The notes under the pieces are model-generated. The model was not told the origin of the DNA, did no database searches, and saw only the letters and a list, made by a program, of their open reading frames with translations. This document shows, in pieces, positions 1,117 through 15,021 of a DNA stretch of 64,000 bases (position 1 is the stretch's first letter; each line of letters begins with the position of its first letter). Made by a program: the position numbers and the translations under genes. The DNA comes from a virus, in the IMG/VR virus record IMGVR_UViG_3300020183_000033, positions 25,972 through 89,971 of that record. The stretch is one strand, 5' to 3'.

Positions 1117-1662
1117 TTGGCGAAAAATTATATCAATAACTCAGAGTTTCTAGTTCTATTAGCAAACTATCAGAAAGTAAAACGAGCAGCTCTGAAGAAA
1201 GGAAAGGATGTTCCTCCGATCCCTAATGAAATCGGAACGTGTATCTTAGAGATCGCGCGCGGCCTAGCACGTAGACCTAACTTCTCTGCGTACACGTTTA
1301 AAGAAGATATGATATCGGATGGTATTGAGAACTGCTTTCAGTACATTGATAACTTCAATCCAGAGATATCCAGTAACCCTTTTTCGTACTTTACCCAGAT
1401 TGTTTATTATGCATTCCTGCGACGCATCTACACCGAATCTAAGCAATCCTATGTTAAGTTTAAATCTTTTCAGAACCACGATTTATTCACAAATCACAAG
1501 CACGAAACAAAAAAGCACGTCAATCTAATTAACACAATTATCAACGATAAAACACAGGATATTATTACCAAGTTCGAAGAAAAGATGTTGGCAAAAGCAA
1601 CGAACAAAAAAGTTTTAAAAGACGACGATGAAATTATAAACCTCGAATTATTCATGGAGTAA
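1117..1662 (+). CDS. gp55: Late-transcription sigma factor gp55
   Basis: NYINN.EF..., RPNF..YT..EDMISDGIENC.QY..NF.PE...NPF.YFTQI.Y.AF.RRI..E motifs; adjacent to gp47/gp46. Confidence 0.95.
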   Translation: MAKNYINNSEFLVLLANYQKVKRAALKKGKDVPPIPNEIGTCILEIARGLARRPNFSAYTFKEDMISDGIENCFQYIDNFNPEISSNPFSYFTQIVYYAFLRRIYTESKQSYVKFKSFQNHDLFTNHKHETKKHVNLINTIINDKTQDIITKFEEKMLAKATNKKVLKDDDEIINLELFME

Positions 1663-1663
1663 C

Positions 1664-2722
1664 ATGCTCAAAGCTCTAATTACTGACACTCACTTCGGTG
1701 CCAGAGGCGATAACCCTCTTTTCTATGACTACTTTGACAAGTTCCTAGACAACGTATTCTTCCCCACCATCAAAAAGAAAAAGATCAAGAAGATTATTCA
1801 TCTCGGTGACGTAAACGATCGTCGCAAGTACATGAACTATCAGACTCTTGCATGGGCTGATACCTTCTTTAAACGTTGTGCTGATCTAGGATTGGAAGTG
1901 GATGTTATCGCTGGAAACCACGATACGTACTACAAGTCCACGAACTCTGTTAACTCTCCTGACCTACTCTTCTCAAAGTACAAGAACGTGAAGATCTACT
2001 CAGAACCAGTCGAGATTGACAACGTTCTTTATGTGCCTTGGATCAACCCAGAGAACAAAGAGAAGACCCTACAGATCATCAGAGACACTGGGTGTGAAGT
2101 AGTTATGGGTCACCTTGAACTCACTGGTTATACGATGTTTAAAGGCTCTGTGTGTCATGATGGAATGAACGCAGACGTGTTCCATAAGTTTGAGTCGGTG
2201 TACTCAGGCCATTTCCATACAAAGAATTCTTCTGGAAACGTACACTACTTGGGTTGCCCCTGGGATCTAATCTTTACTGATACAGACGACGTAAAAGGTT
2301 TTCATTTATGGGACGATGAAACGGACGCTCTGACGTTTGTTGAGAACCCATACAAGATGTATTGGAAGTTGTACTACGATGATACAACAGCGTCGGACAT
2401 AGATGACCTCTTGCTTTCTGACGCAGGATATAGTAAAATAAAGGGTACGTTTGTCAAGGTTTACGTCAAGGGTAAGAACAATCCTGTATTCTTTGATCGT
2501 TATATTCAGAAGATCAATACTTCTGAACCAGCCAACCTTTCTATTGTAGAAGATTACATTCCTGATAACAAGGAAGAAGACGCGATCTGCATCACGGAAG
2601 ATACCTTGTCTATCCTCAAGAATTCAATCAAGGATTACTCTGATCTTCTACCATCAAAGGACAAGGAAGTACAGATAGAAAAGCTTCTATCAGATCTATA
2701 TATCGAGGCATTGAAAGTTTAA
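1664..2722 (+). CDS. gp47: Recombination endonuclease subunit gp47 (Mre11/SbcD-like)
   Basis: Phosphoesterase motifs DTHFG, HLGD..DRR, GNHD, GHLE, SGHFH. Confidence 0.95.
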   Translation: MLKALITDTHFGARGDNPLFYDYFDKFLDNVFFPTIKKKKIKKIIHLGDVNDRRKYMNYQTLAWADTFFKRCADLGLEVDVIAGNHDTYYKSTNSVNSPDLLFSKYKNVKIYSEPVEIDNVLYVPWINPENKEKTLQIIRDTGCEVVMGHLELTGYTMFKGSVCHDGMNADVFHKFESVYSGHFHTKNSSGNVHYLGCPWDLIFTDTDDVKGFHLWDDETDALTFVENPYKMYWKLYYDDTTASDIDDLLLSDAGYSKIKGTFVKVYVKGKNNPVFFDRYIQKINTSEPANLSIVEDYIPDNKEEDAICITEDTLSILKNSIKDYSDLLPSKDKEVQIEKLLSDLYIEALKV

Positions 2723-2723
2723 G

Positions 2724-4439
2724 ATGATCACATTTGAAGAACTAAAATGGTGCAATTTCCTCTCTACTGGAAACAAGTTTAACACCATCAACCTAAACGA
2801 CAAGAAGACAAATCTTATCGTCGGAACGAACGGAATGGGTAAGTCGACGATCCTCGATGCCATTACGTTTGTTCTGTTTAACAAGCCTTTCCGAAAGATC
2901 AATCTTCCTCAGCTGGTGAATACAGTAAATAACCGAGACTGTATTGTAGAGATCTCGTTTAGTACTGGAGCGAACTCTTATCGAATCGTTCGTGGCCTAA
3001 AGCCAAAGGTCTTTGAAATCTGGGAGAACGACAAGATGCTGCAACAAGACGCAGCTATTCGAGACTATCAGGAATACCTTGAAAACCATATCCTGAAGAT
3101 GAACTACAAGGCATTTACCCAGATCGTTGTGATCGGTAACGCAACGTATCAGCCGTTTATGAAGTTGTCTCCACACGATCGTAGAAACATCGTAGAGACG
3201 TTTCTTGATATCGACATCTTCACCAAGATGAACTCGATCCTGAAGTCAAAGATCACTGAGACAAAGGAAAGAATCAACGACGTTTCCTATAAGTACGACC
3301 TCTCTCATGAGAAGATCAAGATGGCTCAGACTATCCTTTCTAGCTCTGAAGAATCCATTCAGAAAAAGATCTCAGACAACAACTCCGAGATCGAAAGGAA
3401 AGAGGTGGCGATCGCTGTAAAGAACAAGCAGATCTCTGACCTGAACGACGAGATTACTTCTATTGTATTCAATCAGGAACAGACGAACAAGGTACAGGAA
3501 AAAATCAATAAACTAAACGAATACCTGACTACGTTTAAGACAAAGAAGAAAACAACCGAGAAGGAGATTCAGTTCCTTGAGGCAAATGATTCTTGTGGTA
3601 CATGTAAGCAGGTGATTGATCCTGAGTTCAAGGAAAAGAACCTGACGGAAAAACGGGAAACGGCTACAAAGCTTGAAGGAGTTATTAAGCAAGCTCAGGA
3701 CGAGATCACGAAGACAAATAATACTCTGAACTCATACCTCGAGAACCTCGAAGAAATCAAGTCCAGAAAGTCTCAGATCGATCGAGTAAAGATTGATCTA
3801 GGTTATCTACAGAAGGATATTGATCGTATTGTAAACGAGAATGCTGCTCTTCTAAAGGAAAAGAAAGACAACCTAGAAAAGAACAAAGAAGAGTATCAGG
3901 TGCTTTTGGACGAGAACAAATCACTCTCGGATGCACGCGATAATCTACTATCCGAGCAACATCTGCATTCGATTGCTGCCGTTCTCTTAAAGGACGATGG
4001 TATCAAGACAAAGATCATCAAGTATTATCTGCCGTTGATGAACAAGTTGATCAACAAGTATCTACATCACCTGGACTTCTATATCAACTATACGTTGGAC
4101 GAGAACTTCGAGGAAAAGGTAAAGACTCCTTCGCGGGATTCCTTTACATACAACTCCTTCTCGGAAGGCGAGAAGCTACGAGTTGACTTAGCTATTCTGT
4201 TCGCTTGGCGGGAAATAGCTAAGTCTAAGAACTCAACAAATACCAATCTATTGTTGCTGGACGAAGTGTTTGATTCATCCCTTGACAACTCAGGGATCGA
4301 CGACTTCCTTCGTATCCTTGATGTTCTGACAGAAGACACCAACGTGTTCGTGATCTCTCATAAGGGTGACTCACTGTTCGACAAGTTCACGAATGTAATT
4401 CGGTTCGAGAAGGTAAACGGTTTCTCTAAGATTATGTGA
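2724..4439 (+). CDS. gp46: Recombination ATPase subunit gp46 (Rad50/SbcC-like)
   Basis: Walker A GTNGMGKST, Zn-hook CGTC, coiled coils, FSEGEK signature, LLLLDEVFDSSLD, SH. Confidence 0.95.
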   Translation: MITFEELKWCNFLSTGNKFNTINLNDKKTNLIVGTNGMGKSTILDAITFVLFNKPFRKINLPQLVNTVNNRDCIVEISFSTGANSYRIVRGLKPKVFEIWENDKMLQQDAAIRDYQEYLENHILKMNYKAFTQIVVIGNATYQPFMKLSPHDRRNIVETFLDIDIFTKMNSILKSKITETKERINDVSYKYDLSHEKIKMAQTILSSSEESIQKKISDNNSEIERKEVAIAVKNKQISDLNDEITSIVFNQEQTNKVQEKINKLNEYLTTFKTKKKTTEKEIQFLEANDSCGTCKQVIDPEFKEKNLTEKRETATKLEGVIKQAQDEITKTNNTLNSYLENLEEIKSRKSQIDRVKIDLGYLQKDIDRIVNENAALLKEKKDNLEKNKEEYQVLLDENKSLSDARDNLLSEQHLHSIAAVLLKDDGIKTKIIKYYLPLMNKLINKYLHHLDFYINYTLDENFEEKVKTPSRDSFTYNSFSEGEKLRVDLAILFAWREIAKSKNSTNTNLLLLDEVFDSSLDNSGIDDFLRILDVLTEDTNVFVISHKGDSLFDKFTNVIRFEKVNGFSKIM

Positions 4440-4680
4440 GGAACTTCTCTAGGCTACCGTCGTCAATCGGACCCTTCTGGACTACCTTGCCGTTGACCAT
4501 GGAATACCATTCCTTCCCAGATAAATCAATCAAAACTTGATCTGATTCGTCTTCTTTATTTGTGTAAGTAACATGGCCGTCGGCTCCTACAGCTGGACGG
4601 CCATAGCCATGATTTGCCATCAAAGCATCTAGTTCTTTTCTGTTGGCTTGCTCGTTAATAAAGTTGTTAAATGAGTACAT
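4432..4680 (-). CDS. Hypothetical protein
   Basis: 82 aa with AGGAAAAGGA SD; MYSFNNFINE start typical of T4-like small late proteins. Confidence 0.6.
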   Translation of the reverse strand: MYSFNNFINEQANRKELDALMANHGYGRPAVGADGHVTYTNKEDESDQVLIDLSGKEWYSMVNGKVVQKGPIDDGSLEKFLT

Positions 4681-4692
4681 AGTTCCTTTTCC

Positions 4693-5715
4693 TTATAGAA
4701 TCTGACTAAGCATAATAGACATCGTATTTCCTCTAGTCCTCACGTAAGGTTCCTTCTTGAAGAAGTATTCTCCCCTTTTATTCCAATCCATTACAATAAA
4801 GTCTCCGTCTTCCACTTCATCCAAAGACAAGGCATTGGATATTGGTTGCACCAATTCTTTTTCTAGAACCCTCTTTAAGTTTCTAGCGCCATATTCAACC
4901 GAATAACCTGCGTCCACAATCTTTTCTTTGGCTAATTTGGTTACACCGAGGAACACCTTTTTCATTTCGCAATGGAAAAGTCTTTCTTGAATTTCCATCA
5001 GTTCGAGATCGAAAATTCTCTCCACGTCTTTTCGTACCAGCTGTTTAAACACAACGATCTTATCAATACGATTGATAAATTCAGGAAGAAAAATTTTCTT
5101 AATTTCCTTTATTATAACTGTTTCGCGTTCTGTTGCAGAAAGAATCTTCTTAGTAAATCCAATAGTATTTTCTTCTGTCTCGATTTTTCTAACGCCAATG
5201 TTGCAGGTCATAAAAATAAAGCAGTTTACAAACGAAACATCAACGTTTGAGTTCGTGGTTACAGTAGCCGTGTCTAAAATTCCAAGAAGCATATTAAACA
5301 TAGAAGGAGAAGCCTTTTCGATTTCGTCAAAAAGGATTACATTTGGCTTTCCTTTGATCTGAATACGCTCCTTAGATAGCAAAGGTTTTGTGTCTCCGTG
5401 ACCCACGTATCCTGGGGGGGCGCCTAGAAGCTTCGACAATTCATGGTGTTGCTGCAATTCACCGCAATTTATCACAACAGGATCGACATCAAAGTAGTTT
5501 CCGATTTCTTGAACAATTTTTGTCTTTCCTGTTCCTGTCGGGCCAGCGAAAAGGAAATTAAACAAAGGCTTTTTGGGGTTGTTTAATCCCACGAAGTAAC
5601 GCTGAGATCCATTACAGATCTCTTTGATTGCTTCGTCCTGCGAAATCACTTTTGACTTTAGGTACTCAGATAAACGCCTGGCTTCGCCATTAAGATTTTT
5701 GCAGTCAAGTACCAT
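4693..5715 (-). CDS. Single-module Clp-family AAA+ ATPase (ClpA/B/C D2-like) with IGF loop
   Basis: GPTGTGKT, pore loop GAPPGYVG, VILFDEIEKA, NTIGF, PEFINRID, YGARNLKR. AGGAGG at 5731-5726 places the start at 5718 (TTG) or 5715 (ATG) rather than 5748. Confidence 0.9.
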   Translation of the reverse strand: MVLDCKNLNGEARRLSEYLKSKVISQDEAIKEICNGSQRYFVGLNNPKKPLFNFLFAGPTGTGKTKIVQEIGNYFDVDPVVINCGELQQHHELSKLLGAPPGYVGHGDTKPLLSKERIQIKGKPNVILFDEIEKASPSMFNMLLGILDTATVTTNSNVDVSFVNCFIFMTCNIGVRKIETEENTIGFTKKILSATERETVIIKEIKKIFLPEFINRIDKIVVFKQLVRKDVERIFDLELMEIQERLFHCEMKKVFLGVTKLAKEKIVDAGYSVEYGARNLKRVLEKELVQPISNALSLDEVEDGDFIVMDWNKRGEYFFKKEPYVRTRGNTMSIMLSQIL

Positions 5716-5735
5716 CAAGAAACAGCCTCCTGACG

Positions 5736-5743
5736 TATTTATG
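5736..5743 (-). promoter_or_regulatory. T4-type late promoter variant (CATAAATA) for the Clp ATPase
   Basis: CATAAATA immediately upstream of the AGGAGG SD. Confidence 0.55.
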
Positions 5744-5750
5744 GGCAAAG

Positions 5751-5778
5751 CAAAAGGCTCTCCGAAGCGAGCCTTTTG
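5751..5778 (-). terminator. Rho-independent terminator ending the tmRNA transcript (potentially bidirectional)
   Basis: CAAAAGGCTC-gcttcgga-GAGCCTTTTG hairpin with A/T tracts on both sides. Confidence 0.8.
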
Positions 5779-6040
5779 GATTCTTTCTGTTTCCGAGTGA
5801 ATCGTACTCAGCTTTAGCTACCGCTCAGGCAGCATATGCATAGGCAACGTTATTGTTGGCCTTTATGTGTTTCCGCTGTTATACAGTAGTCGGCTACTGG
5901 AAATCTCCTCTCCTCTATTCCCGCCAATCGAAACTTGACACCCCCCACAAATTTCCACTCCAGAACTAGCGAATGAAAATTTGGAGGTGGTGGCATTGCA
6001 GCCACGTCTTGACAGTAGTCGAATCGGATCAACGATTCCA
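5779..6040 (-). ncRNA. ssrA: Circularly permuted (two-piece) tmRNA
   Basis: Minus-strand order: GAC + T-arm GTGGC/GCCAC (6005-5990) + CACCTCC-A (5989-5982), then an intervening hairpin, then GGGGGTG-TCAAGTTTCGA (5945 onward). The acceptor stem has G3.U70. P2 is TTGGCGG/CTGTCAA. A pseudoknot precedes the tag ORF 5860-5825, ANNNVAYAYAA*. Confidence 0.9.
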
Positions 6041-6044
6041 ATTC

Positions 6045-6052
6045 TATTTATA
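6045..6052 (-). promoter_or_regulatory. T4 late promoter TATAAATA driving the tmRNA
   Basis: Exact gp55 consensus about 5 nt upstream of the predicted acceptor-piece 5' end. Confidence 0.75.
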
Positions 6053-6071: not shown

Positions 6072-6278
6072 CTAAATAGTAGCAGGAGTAGAAAGTGTAC
6101 CACCATAATAACTCCTGCGATTAAAACCAACTTCCTTGGTAGATTCTATCCAAGCAGCATAGCCTTCTTCTAAGAGGGATTTCGCCGCTGAGACTACGGT
6201 TTTATTATACTCATCATAATAATGAGGTACACTACCAGTGGCAACATGTACTGGAATATCAATTGGTTTCTTAGGCAT
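6072..6278 (-). CDS. Hypothetical protein
   Basis: 68 aa, overlaps the stop of the upstream ORF, AAGGA SD. Confidence 0.55.
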   Translation of the reverse strand: MPKKPIDIPVHVATGSVPHYYDEYNKTVVSAAKSLLEEGYAAWIESTKEVGFNRRSYYGGTLSTPATI

Positions 6279-6933
6279 TCACGATTCCTTTCAGGACCAT
6301 CCATTCTTTCACGAATTTCAAAATTAGACCATACTCTTCAATTTGTTCAGGAGAGTAGGCGTTATCAATACCAATCTGATTATAGTTAGATAACCAGTCA
6401 TCAATGTGAAATTTTTGACCCCCAATAACAACGTTTCCTTCTTGGTCAGTGACACTGATATGGTGAACAGTTCCTGTTAGGAATAGGGGAGTAGTTTTCC
6501 ATTCGCCTCCTGACAACACACCAACAACTTTTGTGTTGCCATAAACCATTGCGTCACCGAAGACCATTGCGTTGCCATAGACACATGCGTTGTCAAAGAC
6601 CCTTGCGGTGCCAGAGACCCATGCGTTGCCAGAGACACATGCGTTGCCATAGACACATGCGTTGTCAGAGACCCTTGCGGTGCCAGAGACCCATGCGTTG
6701 CCATAGACACATGCGGTGTCAGAGACCCTTGCGGTGCCATAGACACATGCGGTGTCAGAGACCCTTGCGGTGCCAGAGACCCTTGCGTTGTCATAGATCA
6801 ACGCATTTGGCCCCACGAAAGCTGTGTCGTCTACAGTAGCGGTGTTCTTGACCCAACCTCCACCATTAGAGTGTTGATGCCAAGTTTCTTCTGTGGCATC
6901 GGGAAATAGCAATTGTAATTCTTGTAGTGTCAT
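6271..6933 (-). CDS. Hexapeptide-repeat (left-handed beta-helix) protein
   Basis: Tandem (A[RCWM]V[SYF][GD][TN])n repeats after the WHQHSNGGGWV..TA.V...A.VGP.A motif. Confidence 0.8.
   Translation of the reverse strand: MTLQELQLLFPDATEETWHQHSNGGGWVKNTATVDDTAFVGPNALIYDNARVSGTARVSDTACVYGTARVSDTACVYGNAWVSGTARVSDNACVYGNACVSGNAWVSGTARVFDNACVYGNAMVFGDAMVYGNTKVVGVLSGGEWKTTPLFLTGTVHHISVTDQEGNVVIGGQKFHIDDWLSNYNQIGIDNAYSPEQIEEYGLILKFVKEWMVLKGIVNA
6545..6800. repeat. 18-bp tandem repeats encoding the hexapeptide array
   Basis: Units such as GTGCCAGAGACCCTTGCG / TTGCCATAGACACATGCG repeated about 14 times. Confidence 0.85.
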
Positions 6934-7668: not shown

Positions 7669-8388
7669 TTAGGAACGAAGCCATTCCGTTTGTAGAACCG
7701 CAGATGACCCGCGGGTCATCTGCCTTAAAGGCACGCCATTCGCTCTGAGGATCTTGACCACATTTGAACCACGCCATTGGCAACCGAACCTCGTTAGGAT
7801 TCCTTCCCTGTTCAACTCTGTAGCGATACGGTTGGCGGTGTACTTCGGCTTCTTAATGTCTGTCAGGATTCGCTTGAGAATCTCTTCTTCCCCGTCTTTT
7901 TCGCCGTAGGTCTTTCTTCCTTCGCACTTCCCTTTTTTGACCCTTTGCCGCACCCTGGCTCCTCGCAGCTTAAGAACCAGCATTTCCTTTTCGTATTGAT
8001 GGAAAGCTCCGAGAACAGTCCTCATCATCTTTCTAGATGGATCATCAGAAGCGAGATCGGGTTCTTGAACGGAGATGACCTGTATGCCTCTGGTTTTGAA
8101 ATCCCGAAGAATGGATTCCTGAACGAACTGATCCCTAGCCAGTCGGCTGAGATTCTCTACAAGAACCGTTTTCGTTCCATTGGCTAAGAGAGCCTCCAGC
8201 AATTGAGTGAAGACGGGTCGTTGAAGGGGAAAGGTCGTTCCGCTAACAACTTCCTCGTAGATTGTTCCTAAACGGAGCTTGTTGGTTTTTGCGTAGTCCT
8301 GGATGGCTTTCCTCTGCCTTTCAAAGCCATCGCCGCCTTCTTGCCCCTTTGAGCTCACTCTGAGGTATCCAAACGCCTTTTCGTTCAT
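7669..8388 (-). CDS. Serine recombinase (resolvase/invertase catalytic domain plus short DNA-binding recombinase domain)
   Basis: GYLRVSS catalytic Ser, RQ, VSG....RP.F, SRLARD, C-terminal IA..LN..G..TR.G..W....V..IL. Confidence 0.9.
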   Translation of the reverse strand: MNEKAFGYLRVSSKGQEGGDGFERQRKAIQDYAKTNKLRLGTIYEEVVSGTTFPLQRPVFTQLLEALLANGTKTVLVENLSRLARDQFVQESILRDFKTRGIQVISVQEPDLASDDPSRKMMRTVLGAFHQYEKEMLVLKLRGARVRQRVKKGKCEGRKTYGEKDGEEEILKRILTDIKKPKYTANRIATELNREGILTRFGCQWRGSNVVKILRANGVPLRQMTRGSSAVLQTEWLRS

Positions 8389-8676: not shown

Positions 8677-9879
8677 TTACAGTTCCAATTCTTGGTCGTA
8701 GGCGGCAAGTTCGGCGAGGACGGCCCGTCGTGCGGCTTCCGCGCGACGTTTATAGGCCAAACTTAAGCTTGCCGACGATTTCGAATCAATAAACGAAATT
8801 ATCGTTTCGTTTTTCTGACGCATGATCCATTCTTGAGCCGAGACAGCCTTCCAACGACGAGCGTAGAAAAACGATTTCCAAGGAGTGTTTGCGTACAACG
8901 ACTCAATAGAAAGAGCGAACTCTTTACGATCTTCCGTGAATGGAAGAGCCGTAAAAGAAGACTCCAACTCTGCTGCGAACGATTTTATACTCGATTCAAT
9001 TTCTGTCAATCGAGAATGTAGATAGGGTAAATACGTTAAAACTTCAGTTAACTCGCCAGCGCGAATTATGTCAATTAAACTGTGGTCTAGGTTCGCGCGA
9101 GTCACAAGTGCATGAACGGCAACGTACTGGGGCGATTTCACTTTGATACGATTGAAATTGTTGTCAACCAATACGTATCCCTCAGAAGAATCAGGGGAGA
9201 GCGTTTTCGCTGCGTGTAAAATTTCTTCAATGTTGTTTAACGAATAGCGACGAACCAACGCGAGGTTAGCTACCGTATCAATCGACAATTCCTGTAACGT
9301 CACGTTGTTTCGAACGCCAATCAAAGTAAGCGAACCATTGTTGCCGCTCTGGTTCGTGACGATCTGATTAAACTGAGAAGTCAATTCAAACATGTAGGTA
9401 AATTTTGGATTACACGATTTAAAAAAGTAGCCGTTGTCTCCAAAGACCTTCCAGAATAAAGCTCTGAACGTGAACTCATTTACTCCGACGTTTCCTCCAG
9501 CATCAGGAGAACCTTTTGTTGCCACCCACCAGTTGCCGTCATAATGGTACATTATCATCAAAGACCCATCGAGTTTTTCCGCCACCTGAAAGTCATTCCA
9601 GTTAAACTGCTTCTCTCCTTCTGGGTATTCAGTGTAGTTAAAAAATCGGTTAAAGGGATACGCAACAACAGCCCAATCATTTGCGGAGTCAAGAATGACG
9701 CCGCGAGACTCAACAACAACAGGGTGAAACCGATTGTTGTAACAATTGATTTGGTTGTAGGTGAACTGAACAAGATTTGTAAATTCTGGGTGAACCGTTG
9801 TATCAATTCCAAGTTGTCGAACTGCTTCGATGCCTTTATCGCGAAGTAAAGCTTGAAGTTTAAGCGTTGGTGATAACAT
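8677..9879 (-). CDS. rnlA: RNA ligase 1 (T4 RnlA/gp63-like)
   Basis: ESRG.I, FNRFFN, motif I EKLDGSL, TYMFEL, EGYVL, R.KVKSP.Y. Confidence 0.9.
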   Translation of the reverse strand: MLSPTLKLQALLRDKGIEAVRQLGIDTTVHPEFTNLVQFTYNQINCYNNRFHPVVVESRGVILDSANDWAVVAYPFNRFFNYTEYPEGEKQFNWNDFQVAEKLDGSLMIMYHYDGNWWVATKGSPDAGGNVGVNEFTFRALFWKVFGDNGYFFKSCNPKFTYMFELTSQFNQIVTNQSGNNGSLTLIGVRNNVTLQELSIDTVANLALVRRYSLNNIEEILHAAKTLSPDSSEGYVLVDNNFNRIKVKSPQYVAVHALVTRANLDHSLIDIIRAGELTEVLTYLPYLHSRLTEIESSIKSFAAELESSFTALPFTEDRKEFALSIESLYANTPWKSFFYARRWKAVSAQEWIMRQKNETIISFIDSKSSASLSLAYKRRAEAARRAVLAELAAYDQELEL

Positions 9880-9893
9880 TTCGCTTCCTTTAA

Positions 9894-10778
9894 TTAAAAC
9901 TCGAAATCTAGAATGCCACAGTTAAACACAGGAAGTTTAAGCACGTTCCAGCACTCTCTAATCACCTGAGGGCGATCTTCAAATACAGCAATAACGTTGT
10001 ACTTCCCTTCGACGTTCTTTTTGTAGAGATTTGTTTTAACAAGAGAATCCCGACGAGTATCACCTACAGTTCGCATGTGTAGCTCGAAATTTGTCAGGTT
10101 GCATTTATCGTGCAACCACTGGAAAGTATCGTCGTAACAGGCAGTGCTACGGCCAGAAAACACAAAGAGTTTCGTGAAAGGATTTATTGCTAACATTCCT
10201 TTAACAGCCATAAGCACATGTCTACGAACTGAGTCCTGGCCAACTAAAGACTCATCAAATGGGCTACGATTTCCCGAGTCTGCCAGAGTTCCATCGATAT
10301 CAACAATTAAACAATCGGTTAGGTGATTCGGCTCGTAACTCGGGAGGGTACAGTTCTTTGCCATGTATTTGTTATACACATCCGAAATGACTTTTTGCCC
10401 AACACGCTTATGTTCTGGACGATTTTTGTCTCGCTTAACACACTCCCAATAGGACACATAGGTAAAGTCAACAAACTCAACCTCGTAACCCAGATCATCC
10501 AATAACTCCAACAGCTTCTGCAACGTCTTTGGATTTAAATGAGTGTTGTCAACAATAATGTTAAATCCGTTTTTCGCGCAATTTATGATCTGGCAAGTGC
10601 GTTCTTTGTGAACCCAATCCTGGATCTCTGGCGACCAATCGCGATGTCCTACAGTAGAATAAATTCTATCGCGGATCGCGTCGTCGTTGATAATGACTGC
10701 TTCCTTTTCCACTTGGTTTTTTTCAGCCCAGGTGGACTTACCAGAAGCTGGTAGCCCCTTTAAAACATAAGCTTTCAT
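9894..10778 (-). CDS. pseT: Polynucleotide 5'-kinase/3'-phosphatase (PseT-like)
   Basis: P-loop GLPASGKSTW, DD.R, HAD motif DIDGTLA, SGR, L.MR..GD.R.D..VK, FEDR. Confidence 0.92.
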   Translation of the reverse strand: MKAYVLKGLPASGKSTWAEKNQVEKEAVIINDDAIRDRIYSTVGHRDWSPEIQDWVHKERTCQIINCAKNGFNIIVDNTHLNPKTLQKLLELLDDLGYEVEFVDFTYVSYWECVKRDKNRPEHKRVGQKVISDVYNKYMAKNCTLPSYEPNHLTDCLIVDIDGTLADSGNRSPFDESLVGQDSVRRHVLMAVKGMLAINPFTKLFVFSGRSTACYDDTFQWLHDKCNLTNFELHMRTVGDTRRDSLVKTNLYKKNVEGKYNVIAVFEDRPQVIRECWNVLKLPVFNCGILDFEF

Positions 10779-10847: not shown

Positions 10848-11429
10848 TCAACTAAATCCAGTAGCATCTGGTACAGTTAAAGGTTTAAATTTAACGAACC
10901 TACCAACGTTCCTCGTGTGAAGTGCACGCTCCACAATCTGTTTGCAGACATCTTCAAATAAGATCGGGGTGTAGTCGATTTTTTCTACACAAACATTTAA
11001 ATAGCGAGTATCTTCTAAACTGTTTGTGTGGGTGTGTCCGTGAATGTTACAACCGAAGTGATATAGATTGGCTTCATGTACAGGAATGTGAGTCAGTAGA
11101 AAACCATTTATTAAATGAGAGCCACGAATATCGCGGAAGTATGGAGTGTAATCAGATAACTCGAAAATATCACGATTACCTCTGATAAGAACCTTATCGC
11201 CGTTTAATCGACTCAAAATCCGCAAAGAATTTCTAGAAATCGCCACATCCCCTAAGTGATACACCTTGTCGTTTGGCCGCACGGTTTCGTTCCAGCGATC
11301 GACCATGAACTCGTCCATTTCTTCACCAGAAGAAAATGGACGCGCAGGAGAACCGTCTTGTAATTTAAATTTCGTACAAAGATTCTCATGACCGAAATGT
11401 GTATCACTTATTAACCAAACTGATGGCAC
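10848..11429 (-). CDS. Calcineurin-like metallophosphoesterase
   Basis: SDTHFGH, WN..V...D.VYHLGD, GNRD (normally GNHD), THIP, HGHTH. Confidence 0.85.
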   Translation of the reverse strand: MPSVWLISDTHFGHENLCTKFKLQDGSPARPFSSGEEMDEFMVDRWNETVRPNDKVYHLGDVAISRNSLRILSRLNGDKVLIRGNRDIFELSDYTPYFRDIRGSHLINGFLLTHIPVHEANLYHFGCNIHGHTHTNSLEDTRYLNVCVEKIDYTPILFEDVCKQIVERALHTRNVGRFVKFKPLTVPDATGFS

Positions 11430-12852: not shown

Positions 12853-15021
12853 TTACTTAACTATCTTTTCAATAAATGAGTTGATCATCGTCCGCTTCTG
12901 TTTTTTGTTATTGTTAACCCAAGAAAATGTATTTTTTAAATCTTCCATGTCGGTCACCTGGATCTTACCGATATCCTTCACCTTCTTGAAGGCGTCAGTC
13001 CCGATAATGTACATTTCATCAAACTCCATGACAGCCTTCTTTTCGACCCTGTAATTGCCGCTCATGTAAGGATCAATAAAGAAGTTCACAAACGATACAC
13101 CCTTCAAACGCTTCTTCATCAGGTTCAAGAACGCAGCAGGAACCAGCAGAGAACAGTTGTTTTGGATAACAGTTCCCTTGTACTTCTCATCAAGATACGA
13201 AGACGAAACCCTTGACTTCGTTTTGGGGTCCACAAGAACGGAGTGAGTAATATTACTACCGTAACTATAGTAGTTGCTCATCGAGTACTTATCGCAAGAG
13301 TGAGTGTCGCCACCATCAGTCAAGAACACAACATTAACAATCTCCGCGCGAGTGTTACGACGGAAGCGATTCACAACAGCTTCCAAGGTATTGATAGCCA
13401 TTACCAGCGGAGTGCCTCCGAGAGGAAACCAATCAATCCGCTTCCACTTCGGAGAGAGAAACAAATCAAACATGTCAACGAACTGCTTGTTCGTCATGTT
13501 GCTCGAGAAAAGTTCGATCAAAGCAAACTCATATTCGGTAGTACTTTCTGGCTTTTCTTTGAACTGAACGAACTCTTTGGCACCTTTCTTGATAGTTCTT
13601 TGATGCAAGTAACCAATCGCATGATGGTTATCAGTGAATCCGTATACAGAAGCAGGAATCCCACAATTACGGCAGAACGACAAAACTTCCATCAACTGAG
13701 TTAGCGTCTCACGGAAGTACTTATTCATCGAACCAGACATATCCAGGTAGAAAACGATCCCGTGATTTTTACCTTTCTGACGGACCTGAGTCGTGAGGAA
13801 AACGTTTTCATCAAATTTGTAATTAGGAAGTGCGTTCATATTAAGGCGGCCAGTCTTGAACTGAAGTGTGTTTTTGTACTCAGTCGCCTTCTTCTTCATA
13901 TCGAACATCTTCGTGTAGTAAGCGATAGAAGCTGCGTGATCCTTGCTGAATTTCTTGTAGGAAGCAGCAATCGAACTCAAGTCCATTGGTTCTTCTTCGC
14001 CTTGAACTTCGGTGACTCTGTTGCAACCATAGTATTTATCAAACACGTGTGTCTTAAGGTACGTGCGGAGCTCTTCGTTGGTGATTAAGATGTTCTCAAT
14101 AATCGGCTCAGGCAGTTCATAGTAAGTGTTCTTGACTTGAGCTTCTGTCTTCGATTCAAGAAACTTTTTCATCTTTTCTTCGACTTTGTTCGTGTACTTG
14201 CTCTCGAACGAACTTGCCTTGCCTTTTTCCTTTAAAGGTTCAGGTGAAGCTTCGCCGACTGGTTCTGATTTATTTGAATCAGTGGCGGACTCAGATTCTT
14301 CTTCTGATCCTTCGCCTTCAGAAGACTTGCCGTTGCTGCCAGTCTTTTGTTTTTTTTGTTGGTCTTCAGAACCACCAGAATCCTTTTGCTGACTCTTGCG
14401 TGTTTCCGACTCTTCTTGCATCTGGCCTTCAGGTGAAGACATCATCTGCTGGTCGCTGTTGAACTCTTCTTCACACAGACCGTAGATCTCGTTTGTCAAC
14501 GCCACGACGTCTTCGAAGGTTTCGCAATTTTCAACTTTATTCACCAACTGCCAAAACTGATCGTCGGTTTCAAACGGAATCTTGCCTGGAATCTTGAAGT
14601 GGAAATTGATCTTGTCAATCAGCGTCATCTGGCTGGGATCAAAACCTTTTGTGAAAATACCACGTTCAAAGAGTTCCTCGTAACCAAAGTAGAAAACTTT
14701 GCGCATACCAGGATACTTTTTCTTTACTGCGCGTTCGATGCGTGGGTCTTCAATCACGTTCATGACGGTCTTGAAAACATTCTTGTTTCCGTTGAAGGAT
14801 TCAATTGCGGAGACCCACGCATCAGAAGGAGTATAAAGAGCGTGACCGATTTCGTGGCCGATAAGCATCTCAGTTTCCATTTCACTGAGATCTTTCCAGG
14901 TCGGCAGGACTAGGGTGCGGTTTTCTGTATCGAAATAAGCAGTAGGAACGTTTTGCTGCTGTATGTCGATATCTTCGGTTGCCATTAACTTCGCTAGCAA
15001 CTCAGTGCGTTCATCAAGCAT
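12853..15021 (-). CDS. CobT-like protein: N-terminal HEXXH metallopeptidase-like domain, acidic linker, C-terminal vWA domain
   Basis: HEIGHALYT, NVIED.RIE, MIDAS DMSGSM, GGTPL, FLTDG. Confidence 0.85.
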   Translation of the reverse strand: MLDERTELLAKLMATEDIDIQQQNVPTAYFDTENRTLVLPTWKDLSEMETEMLIGHEIGHALYTPSDAWVSAIESFNGNKNVFKTVMNVIEDPRIERAVKKKYPGMRKVFYFGYEELFERGIFTKGFDPSQMTLIDKINFHFKIPGKIPFETDDQFWQLVNKVENCETFEDVVALTNEIYGLCEEEFNSDQQMMSSPEGQMQEESETRKSQQKDSGGSEDQQKKQKTGSNGKSSEGEGSEEESESATDSNKSEPVGEASPEPLKEKGKASSFESKYTNKVEEKMKKFLESKTEAQVKNTYYELPEPIIENILITNEELRTYLKTHVFDKYYGCNRVTEVQGEEEPMDLSSIAASYKKFSKDHAASIAYYTKMFDMKKKATEYKNTLQFKTGRLNMNALPNYKFDENVFLTTQVRQKGKNHGIVFYLDMSGSMNKYFRETLTQLMEVLSFCRNCGIPASVYGFTDNHHAIGYLHQRTIKKGAKEFVQFKEKPESTTEYEFALIELFSSNMTNKQFVDMFDLFLSPKWKRIDWFPLGGTPLVMAINTLEAVVNRFRRNTRAEIVNVVFLTDGGDTHSCDKYSMSNYYSYGSNITHSVLVDPKTKSRVSSSYLDEKYKGTVIQNNCSLLVPAAFLNLMKKRLKGVSFVNFFIDPYMSGNYRVEKKAVMEFDEMYIIGTDAFKKVKDIGKIQVTDMEDLKNTFSWVNNNKKQKRTMINSFIEKIVK

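Follow-up and report, generated by a model that had tools for sequence, protein, structure and literature searches.

A tmRNA gene and a Clp ATPase gene inherited together in T4-like and other phages

Introduction

Do phages that carry a transfer-messenger RNA (tmRNA) also bring the motor that disposes of what it tags? This question is raised by a 64,000-nt stretch of viral DNA (hereafter the window; bases 25,972-89,971 of the 89,971-bp IMG/VR viral contig IMGVR_UViG_3300020183_000033), in which a tmRNA gene and the gene of a Clp-type AAA+ ATPase lie next to each other on the minus strand. An initial annotation, made from the sequence alone, had described the two genes as adjacent and co-oriented, which we confirmed, and had read them as a candidate new, late-expressed tag-and-destroy module. 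We found the pair to be co-inherited in many phage lineages, a pattern suggestive of a phage-run tag-and-degrade circuit. Phage tmRNAs have been catalogued for 20 years and their function is not agreed; a conserved genetic partner provides a concrete testable hypothesis, namely that phages bring both the tag writer and the tag reader.

Results

Linkage of tmRNA and ATPase genes across phage lineages

Linkage was scored in 129 viral records bearing a related Clp ATPase, taken as a first sample of 79 and a second, non-overlapping sample of 50. A tmRNA was counted if it scored over its Rfam cut-off, and the genes were called linked when they lay within 7 kb of each other. In the first sample, 39 of 79 records had a tmRNA and 35 of these 39 were linked, all on the same strand; in the second, 14/50 records had a tmRNA and 11/14 were linked, as read from coordinates. 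Over both samples a tmRNA was present in 53/129 records, within 7 kb and on the same strand in 46/53. Loss of the adjacency in relatives had been named in the initial annotation as grounds for dropping its proposal; the adjacency is conserved in six T4-like lineages, where the tmRNA-then-ATPase order is kept down to ~39% ATPase identity, and it extends to other phage clades.

Three arrangements were distinguished. In class A, the clade of the window, the ATPase is single-domain and immediately preceded by a permuted tmRNA, with gaps of 109 nt in the window, 87 nt in G080 (ATPase 65% identical to that of the window), 85 nt in G001-3 (42%) and 670, 601 and ~600 nt in G004, G082 and G130, where an open reading frame (ORF) with a sigma-70-type promoter is inserted between the two genes. 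The class A order persists although this gene is inserted and the flanks have changed. In class B, the ATPase has 383 aa and the tmRNA, again permuted, lies 6.4 kb upstream of it. In class C, the ATPase is a two-domain ClpC-like protein (no N-domain, VGF loop) and a standard tmRNA lies 1-5.6 kb downstream of it, past two opposite-strand genes. In a D2-domain tree, single-domain and two-domain proteins split with 100% support, and the linked cases are spread over no fewer than four separate positions, those of class A, class B and two subclades of class C.

As a control, 80 T4-like loci were fetched by gp46 alone. Of these, 79 had neither the ATPase nor an adjacent tmRNA, and the sole locus with both was G080; a permuted tmRNA was found in 1 of the 79 control records and the ATPase in 0. 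Four other gp46-anchored relatives likewise had neither gene. Altogether, the tmRNA and ATPase genes are inherited together, and the support for this is strong.

Other elements were observed in these loci. The gene inserted in three class A lineages encodes ~190 aa (L005:3331-3964, L137:4076-4676 and the equivalent region of L132); its product begins like a signal peptide, and the gene comes with a separate near-consensus sigma-70 promoter (TTGACA-17-TACAAT) and a terminator hairpin. Class C has a conserved protein of 275 aa, encoded between the ClpC-like gene and the tmRNA (L078:4966-5793 and L046:5376-6203, both minus strand), which gives weak M20/M42 peptidase matches, below the Pfam cut-offs, and could be another proteolysis-related neighbour. 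A GOLLD RNA (Rfam RF02032, 306-327 bits) lies within ~1 kb of class-C tmRNAs (L099:2420-2827, L096:956-1362, L091:223-634), making this a neighbourhood of Clp ATPase, tmRNA and GOLLD.

Table 1. Positions of the features of the locus, numbered along the window.
Feature	Position	Strand	Evidence or detail
gp55 late sigma	1117-1662	+	phrog_234, 175 bits
gp47	1664-2722	+	
gp46	2724-4439	+	
340-aa single-ring Clp/Hsp100 D2-type AAA+ ATPase	4693..5715	-	Pfam, PHROG, AlphaFold2, Foldseek
IGF tripeptide, residues 185-187, presumed ClpP-docking loop	5155..5163	-	alignment with ClpA IGL, family conservation, model
Shine-Dalgarno AGGAGG of ATPase	5726-5731	-	
CATAAATA, late-promoter-like motif, 28 nt before ATPase start	5736..5743	-	
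Intrinsic-terminator-like hairpin (10 bp, -15.7 kcal/mol) followed by U-rich UUUUGCUUUG, between tmRNA and ATPase	5751..5778	-	
Circularly permuted (two-piece) tmRNA, whole precursor	5778..6040	-	Rfam RF04321, RNAalifold covariation, 3' pseudoknot
3' pseudoknot of coding piece; stem 2 GAUUC/GAAUC around AACAGAA	5779..5811	-	covariation
Tag reading frame, ANNNVAYAYAA + TGA stop	5825..5860	-	GCC AAC AAT AAC GTT GCC TAT GCA TAT GCT GCC TGA
Acceptor 5' strand GGGGGUG, start of coding piece, forms G3:U70	5939..5945	-	alignment columns 59/168
Intervening segment, 36 nt, presumed removed in maturation	5946..5981	-	variable-length gap region of six-lineage alignment
Acceptor piece: 5' strand of long-range helices, T-arm, acceptor 3' strand CACCUCC, discriminator A	5982..6040	-	
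TATAAATA, T4-type late-promoter-like motif, 12 nt before tmRNA 5' end	6045..6052	-	
Rnl1-type RNA ligase	8677-9879	-	upstream, same strand as cassette
T4-type polynucleotide kinase-phosphatase (PNKP)	9894-10778	-	upstream, same strand as cassette
Phosphoesterase	10848-11429	-	upstream, same strand as cassette

A structurally conserved two-piece tmRNA

The tmRNA matches the Rfam family tmRNA_permuted (RF04321) at 5825-6040 on the minus strand (81.2 bits, E 5.6e-14, model positions 1-213), which passes the gathering score of 47 over the full model, and it reaches beyond the 3' end of the model, via a covarying pseudoknot, to about 5778. Its elements follow the order of the model: the acceptor piece comes first, then the coding piece, in which the tag runs from an Ala codon to the stop (Table 1). 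GGGGGUG pairs with CACCUCC in the tRNA-like acceptor stem, and the alanine identity pair G3:U70 is present, as U:G in alignment columns 59/168, in all six tmRNA sequences. RNAalifold, run on the six aligned phage tmRNAs, recovered the two-piece architecture with 48 pairs, 22 of them with compensatory double changes, and stem 2 of the pseudoknot is fully compensatory in the other lineages (GCCGCC/GGCGGC, GAAGTTTTT/AAAAACTTC, GCAACTT/AAGTTGC). Every lineage compared has an AA-ending tag, including ANTNVLVMSAAA in G003, ADTKVFAMAA in G004 and those of L137 and L132; the tmRNAs of L004 and L005 additionally score as alphaproteobacterial type. This sequence evidence strongly supports a structurally conserved two-piece RNA that should be chargeable with alanine, and we consider it likely that the tmRNA functions.

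Two other interpretations of this segment were rejected. A 63-aa ORF at 5850-6041, which overlaps the tmRNA, is spurious, and an integration fragment of the attP type was rejected because the tmRNA is of full length in a phage that is T4-like and lytic.

Detection of such RNAs depends strongly on the program. ARAGORN did not report the tmRNA in the window, and in the scanned related loci it found only 3 tmRNAs, against ~40 found by the Rfam covariance models. Since ARAGORN misses most of the tmRNAs found with Rfam, published phage frequencies based on it are probably too low; one such survey, of 18,146 phage genomes, put the share with a tmRNA at 2.3% (PMC9004378).

A D2-only Clp ATPase with a predicted ClpP-docking loop

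The ORF of the ATPase spans 4693-5748 on the minus strand, and its start is most likely ATG 5715, behind AGGAGG. Pfam detected AAA_2 (119 bits) and ClpB_D2-small (62 bits), and the PHROG match is 4871, 'ATP-dependent protease'. The best sequence matches among solved structures were ClpB NBD2, ClpC and ClpA, in each case to the second ring only, with ~34-37% identity to ClpA/ClpC across the D2 and D2-small domains. All parts of a Clp/Hsp100 D2 module are present: Walker A and B, sensor-1, Arg finger, sensor-2 and a GYVG pore loop. In an alignment of 19 family members, Walker A K64, Walker B D130/E131, sensor-1 N172, R216 and the sensor-2 GAR276-278 are invariant, as is G-Y-x-G-H of the pore loop (GYVGH in the window). 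In the AlphaFold2 model (predicted local distance difference test, pLDDT, 86.5; predicted template-modelling score, pTM, 0.82), the top Foldseek matches (E ~1e-30) were the D2-ring subunits of ClpC and ClpA from solved ClpC-ClpP and ClpA-ClpP complexes.

The protein falls outside the named families. It scored 229 bits with the ClpA equivalog TIGR02639 (cut-off 993), over model positions 448-730 only, which excludes it from ClpA/ClpC, and 44 bits with ClpX (TIGR00382 / PRK05342; cut-off 359), whose N-domain it lacks. Because these NCBIfam scores lie far below the cut-offs, we describe it as a D2-only protein that is neither ClpA nor ClpX. It is not a ClpB/Hsp104 disaggregase either, having a single ring, no M-domain and a longer, IGF-bearing loop.

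The initial annotation had also predicted a ClpP-docking loop, and this prediction holds at the level of sequence and fold. After sensor-1, on the ClpP-facing side, the ATPase has the hydrophobic-Gly-Phe/Leu tripeptide of ClpP-partnered unfoldases. When the loop region alone was searched, the best solved-structure match was 5ofo, a ClpB chimera (BAP) carrying the ClpP-binding loop of ClpA, and IGF aligned on its IGL. The phi-G-F/Y pattern is conserved in the 19 family members, with G186 invariant, and the AlphaFold2 model places IGF in a flexible loop of lower pLDDT between helices 175-183 and 194-208. In contrast, the loop of T. thermophilus ClpB is shorter and has no such motif. An intact single-ring Clp D2-type unfoldase with a predicted ClpP-docking loop is thus strongly supported, and both sequence and model lean towards an ATPase that depends on ClpP.

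D2-only Clp ATPases with ~40% identity, an LGF loop and ~390 aa are also found in Acidobacteriota (Bryobacterales). The phage protein would be a minimal Hsp100-type protease motor, a natural unfoldase made of the ClpA/C D2 only with a ClpP loop, of a kind shared with Acidobacteriota. The bacterial genes are chromosomal and widespread in Bryobacterales and others (L214-L293, e.g. L225:5001-6173).

Late-type motifs, terminator and timing of expression

The late-type motifs claimed for the locus and the terminator between the genes were all in place (TATAAATA, CATAAATA and the 10-bp hairpin; Table 1). A NATAAATA motif lies at -12 to -14 of the tmRNA in 5/6 related lineages, and the position of the late-type motif is therefore conserved; upstream of the ATPase, the motif is AATAAATA at -22 in L004, and none is clear in L134. 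TATAAATA is not enriched across the window (7 sites vs 4.0 expected). With a TATAAATA element 12 nt before the tmRNA and a phage-encoded gp55, the locus has the makings of a T4-type late transcription unit. The description of the module as late-expressed overstates this, the timing itself being read from motifs only.

Partner proteins

Neither the window nor the full 89,971-bp record yielded SmpB, ClpP, SspB or ClpS; at ~50% completeness (CheckV), the record is about half of the genome, and the sole match in its ClpS search scored 11.7 bits, which is noise. The initial annotation had noted the absence of SmpB and ClpP from the window, and the search for smpB and clpP in the full record recovered neither. 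SmpB was also not found in G001-4 or in the class-B phage G054 (94% complete), nor was ClpP in G054.

Other relatives encode one partner or the other. G003 has a gene for a ClpP-like protein of 204 aa (Pfam 110 bits) that shows Ser/His/Asp motifs and on which ClpP models outscore the ClpP-related head-protease model, with scores below the curated cut-offs of both. In the class-C jumbo phage G043, whose 321-kb genome is complete, SmpB is phage-encoded (138 bits; contig 187,024-187,425), ~100 kb from the tmRNA, and ClpP was not found. The proposal that the phage borrows SmpB and ClpP from its host is thus consistent with their absence from the record and from G054; as regards ClpP it is not universal, because the closest IMG/VR relative has a ClpP-like gene. 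The ClpP-like gene of G003 (L114:1825-2439; contig 13,324-13,938) adjoins a gp23-like capsid gene; the prohead protease usual in T4-like phages is the unrelated gp21.

Genomic neighbourhood and occurrence

The phage is T4-like and encodes gp55, gp47 and gp46, the last with 44% identity to gp46 of T4-like cyanophages such as S-ShM2. These three genes (1117..4439, +) flank the tmRNA-ATPase pair convergently, and their order is identical in L004. Upstream of the pair, on its strand, lie genes for an Rnl1-type RNA ligase, a PNKP and a phosphoesterase. Linkage of such genes to the tmRNA-ATPase pair was also seen in G003 (RNA ligase and phosphoesterase) and in G004 (RNA ligase). Rnl1 and PNKP are the kit of T4 against the anticodon nuclease PrrC. 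The initial annotation had suggested a role in countering RNase-based host defences, an idea that gains support from these same-strand genes; the link to RNA repair suggests a role against ribotoxic defences (anticodon nucleases, RNA-cutting CRISPR, toxin systems).

Two small flanking ORFs (82 aa at 4432-4680 and 68 aa at 6072-6278) were considered as adaptors and rejected because they have no family matches and are not conserved in relatives. At a distance of 1.6 kb from the tmRNA there is a serine recombinase/DNA-invertase gene (window 7669-8388, minus strand; Pfam Resolvase, 101 bits) that is not present in relatives; no convincing inverted repeats were found around it. Between the recombinase and the tmRNA, a gene at 6271-6933 (minus strand) encodes a 220-aa protein of YdcK-type beta-solenoid repeats (GNAxVxG and similar).

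The locus was seen in ~20 lake and freshwater metagenomes, dated 2018 and 2021. Contigs from four additional lake runs equal the window sequence with zero differences, so that no polymorphism could be analysed at the locus. A DNA search with the 1.9-kb locus against 50,697 phage records gave no match, and an exact search of viral contigs with the tag-coding 37-mer gave 0 matches. A 17-mer of the tmRNA gave 18 matches, and true relatives accounted for only 4 of them (G001-3 and L132), the others being chance matches without a tmRNA. In a metagenome scan with the ATPase family alignment, relatives among the matches listed had at most 39% identity; closer relatives (P0002-P0006) are 66-80% identical.

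Discussion

A possible trans-translation and proteolysis cassette

We tentatively favour a phage-carried trans-translation and proteolysis cassette, an explanation that the comparative data strengthen and to which we give not quite an even chance. In late infection, RNA polymerase directed by gp55 would transcribe the tmRNA from TATAAATA, and host enzymes would excise the intervening segment and add CCA. The tmRNA would be loaded on stalled ribosomes by host AlaRS, SmpB and EF-Tu; stalling would be expected from mRNAs and tRNAs truncated by host nucleases or by the phage's own host shut-off, with Rnl1 and PNKP, encoded in the same gene block, available for RNA repair. Nascent chains would then receive the tag ANNNVAYAYAA, and the ATPase hexamer would dock on ClpP through its IGF loops and feed in the tagged chains, the ClpP being that of the host here and possibly phage-encoded in G003. 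As a result, ribosomes would be freed and amino acids recycled as host supplies dwindle. That the motor reads the tag, the key functional link, is an inference; action of the ATPase on the phage tag is possible and a shade doubtful. A bolder version, which we find distinctly unlikely, makes the cassette one arm of a phage island countering RNA-targeting defences. Rnl1 and PNKP would mend cut tRNAs and the tmRNA would clear ribosomes stalled on cut mRNAs, while the D2-only unfoldase would form a private ClpP channel that prefers the phage tag and is independent of host ClpX and SspB; the recurrent linkage would then reflect repeated selection for a self-contained pair of tag writer and reader.

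Several observations weigh against a functional coupling. In seven records the two genes lie >18 kb apart, and complete genomes can hold one part only: a permuted tmRNA stands without the ATPase in G184 (149.5 kb, T4-like), as does the ATPase without a tmRNA in G084 (117 kb). Either part can therefore work alone, presumably with host counterparts, and the coupling is not obligatory, being dispensable both ways. Neither a tmRNA nor ClpP was found within 5 kb of the Acidobacteriota homologues (80 loci). The cassette sits in a variable accessory region beside gp46, so that part of the synteny could be due to descent and not to selection. As for expression, there is no RNA run among the listed sequencing runs that hold the locus. 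Finally, the tmRNA of the window is alone in lacking an encoded 3' CCA, which is present in 5/5 relatives (L134, L004, L005, L137 and L132; CCUCC-A-AAU at window 5982-5990 vs CCUCC-ACCA), and the 6-nt loop of its T-arm (GUGGC-UGCAAU-GCCAC) is an oddity; a CCA-less tmRNA may have weakened or altered function.

The single-part genomes and the Acidobacteriota homologues, which work without a linked tmRNA, favour a reading in which the two genes are spare parts that share a site without acting on each other, both keeping up translation and protein quality after host shut-off. The tmRNA would only rescue ribosomes, and host ClpXP or another protease would take its tagged products; together with ClpP, the ATPase would degrade other substrates (host, defence or misassembled virion proteins), and the two would travel together as late accessory genes. 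This reading also fits the tags, which resemble ordinary AA-ending ssrA tags readable by host ClpXP, and the unlinked tmRNA and Clp genes of phage G and other large phages (PMC12484599). We nevertheless hold it somewhat unlikely, as at least four ATPase clades show the tight linkage on one strand, with differing tmRNA types and gene orders, and at the gp46 locus both genes are present or both absent. A historical accident, in which both genes landed in a hypervariable T4-like accessory region and were never separated, could likewise account for a gp46-adjacent site that is variable and has other content in 79 relatives, and many class-C records are closely related; yet the pair persists to ~39% ATPase identity despite changing flanks and an inserted gene, and there is independent linkage of standard tmRNAs with two-domain ClpC-like ATPases, which makes such an accident very improbable.

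Two further alternatives concern one gene each. If the IGF were incidental, the ATPase could be a ClpP-independent chaperone or disaggregase like Skd3/CLPB or ClpB NBD2, aiding the folding or assembly of phage proteins. ClpB NBD2 indeed gave the best full-length sequence matches, Skd3/CLPB-type single D2 rings were among the PDB matches, and ClpP was not found in the record or in most relatives. The loop argues otherwise, being longer than that of T. thermophilus ClpB, carrying a Gly that is invariant family-wide within phi-G-F/Y and, searched alone, matching the ClpP-binding loop of ClpA best; moreover, the protein has no M-domain for DnaK coupling and G003 has a ClpP-like gene, and we therefore judge a chaperone improbable. 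The tmRNA of the window could instead be a decoy or a decaying copy that titrates SmpB or competes with the host tmRNA, an idea that draws on its missing CCA (unique among the six lineages), its 6-nt T-loop and a phage molecule consisting of the tRNA-like domain only, possibly inhibitory, discussed in PMC4131195. All helices, G3:U70, the tag frame with its stop and the pseudoknot are however intact, and the CCA-less allele is present unchanged in several lake metagenomes, with identical sequence in 2018 and 2021. T4 tRNA genes without CCA are matured by host enzymes, and CCA can be added by the host. A decoy is thus quite improbable.

Comparison with known systems

The trans-translation and proteolysis cassette that we favour would not be a new system, as the initial annotation had it, and is better seen as the phage version of a known bacterial pathway, trans-translation followed by Clp proteolysis. 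As in bacterial trans-translation with ClpXP/ClpAP, there is an alanine-identity acceptor, an AA-ending tag and an AAA+ unfoldase with a ClpP-docking tripeptide. Here, in contrast, the genes are adjacent and belong to a T4-like phage that is lytic, the unfoldase differs from both ClpX and ClpA, and SmpB, ClpP and SspB were not found in the 90-kb record of the phage; to our knowledge, tmRNA and unfoldase genes are not adjacent in bacteria. The literature search found no published tmRNA-Clp ATPase linkage and no description of a D2-only family.

The ATPase resembles the D2 of ClpA and ClpC in fold and has IGF at the same loop position (IGL in E. coli ClpA, VGF in ClpC), but it lacks the N-domain, the D1 ring and the M-domain and has 340 aa vs ~760-820 aa. 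With ClpX, which is known to recognise ssrA tags, it shares the single AAA+ ring, the GYVG pore loop and the IGF loop; the homology is limited to the AAA+ core, with no zinc-binding N-domain, and the phage protein is of the Hsp100 D2 lineage. The single-domain Clp D2 ATPases of Acidobacteriota are alike in their D2-only architecture, LGF loop and ~40% identity, and unlike in being chromosomal, in having ~390 aa with a C-terminal extension and in the lack of a linked tmRNA or ClpP; they appear to be uncharacterised.

Among phages, mycobacteriophages and phage G are known to carry tmRNAs (PMC4131195), and phage pf16 encodes SspB and no tmRNA (PMC5587285). Huge and jumbo phages also encode ribosome-rescue and Clp components, a tmRNA occurring together with SmpB in huge phages (PMC7162821) and tmRNA and ClpXP at distant sites in phage G (PMC12484599); unlike here, these tmRNA, SmpB and Clp genes are listed separately, with no linkage described (PMC7162821; PMC12484599). 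Closest in kind are the tmRNAs known in the Methylophilales phage Melnitz and in pelagimyophages (PMC9004378), which are likewise permuted tmRNAs of alphaproteobacterial type in aquatic T4-like phages and for which a role in tagging proteins for degradation has been speculated upon. In Melnitz, the tmRNA lies upstream of a late-transcription coactivator, has an early promoter and has no reported Clp partner (PMC9004378), whereas a late-type motif accompanies the tmRNA of the window, which is followed by a conserved Clp ATPase gene.

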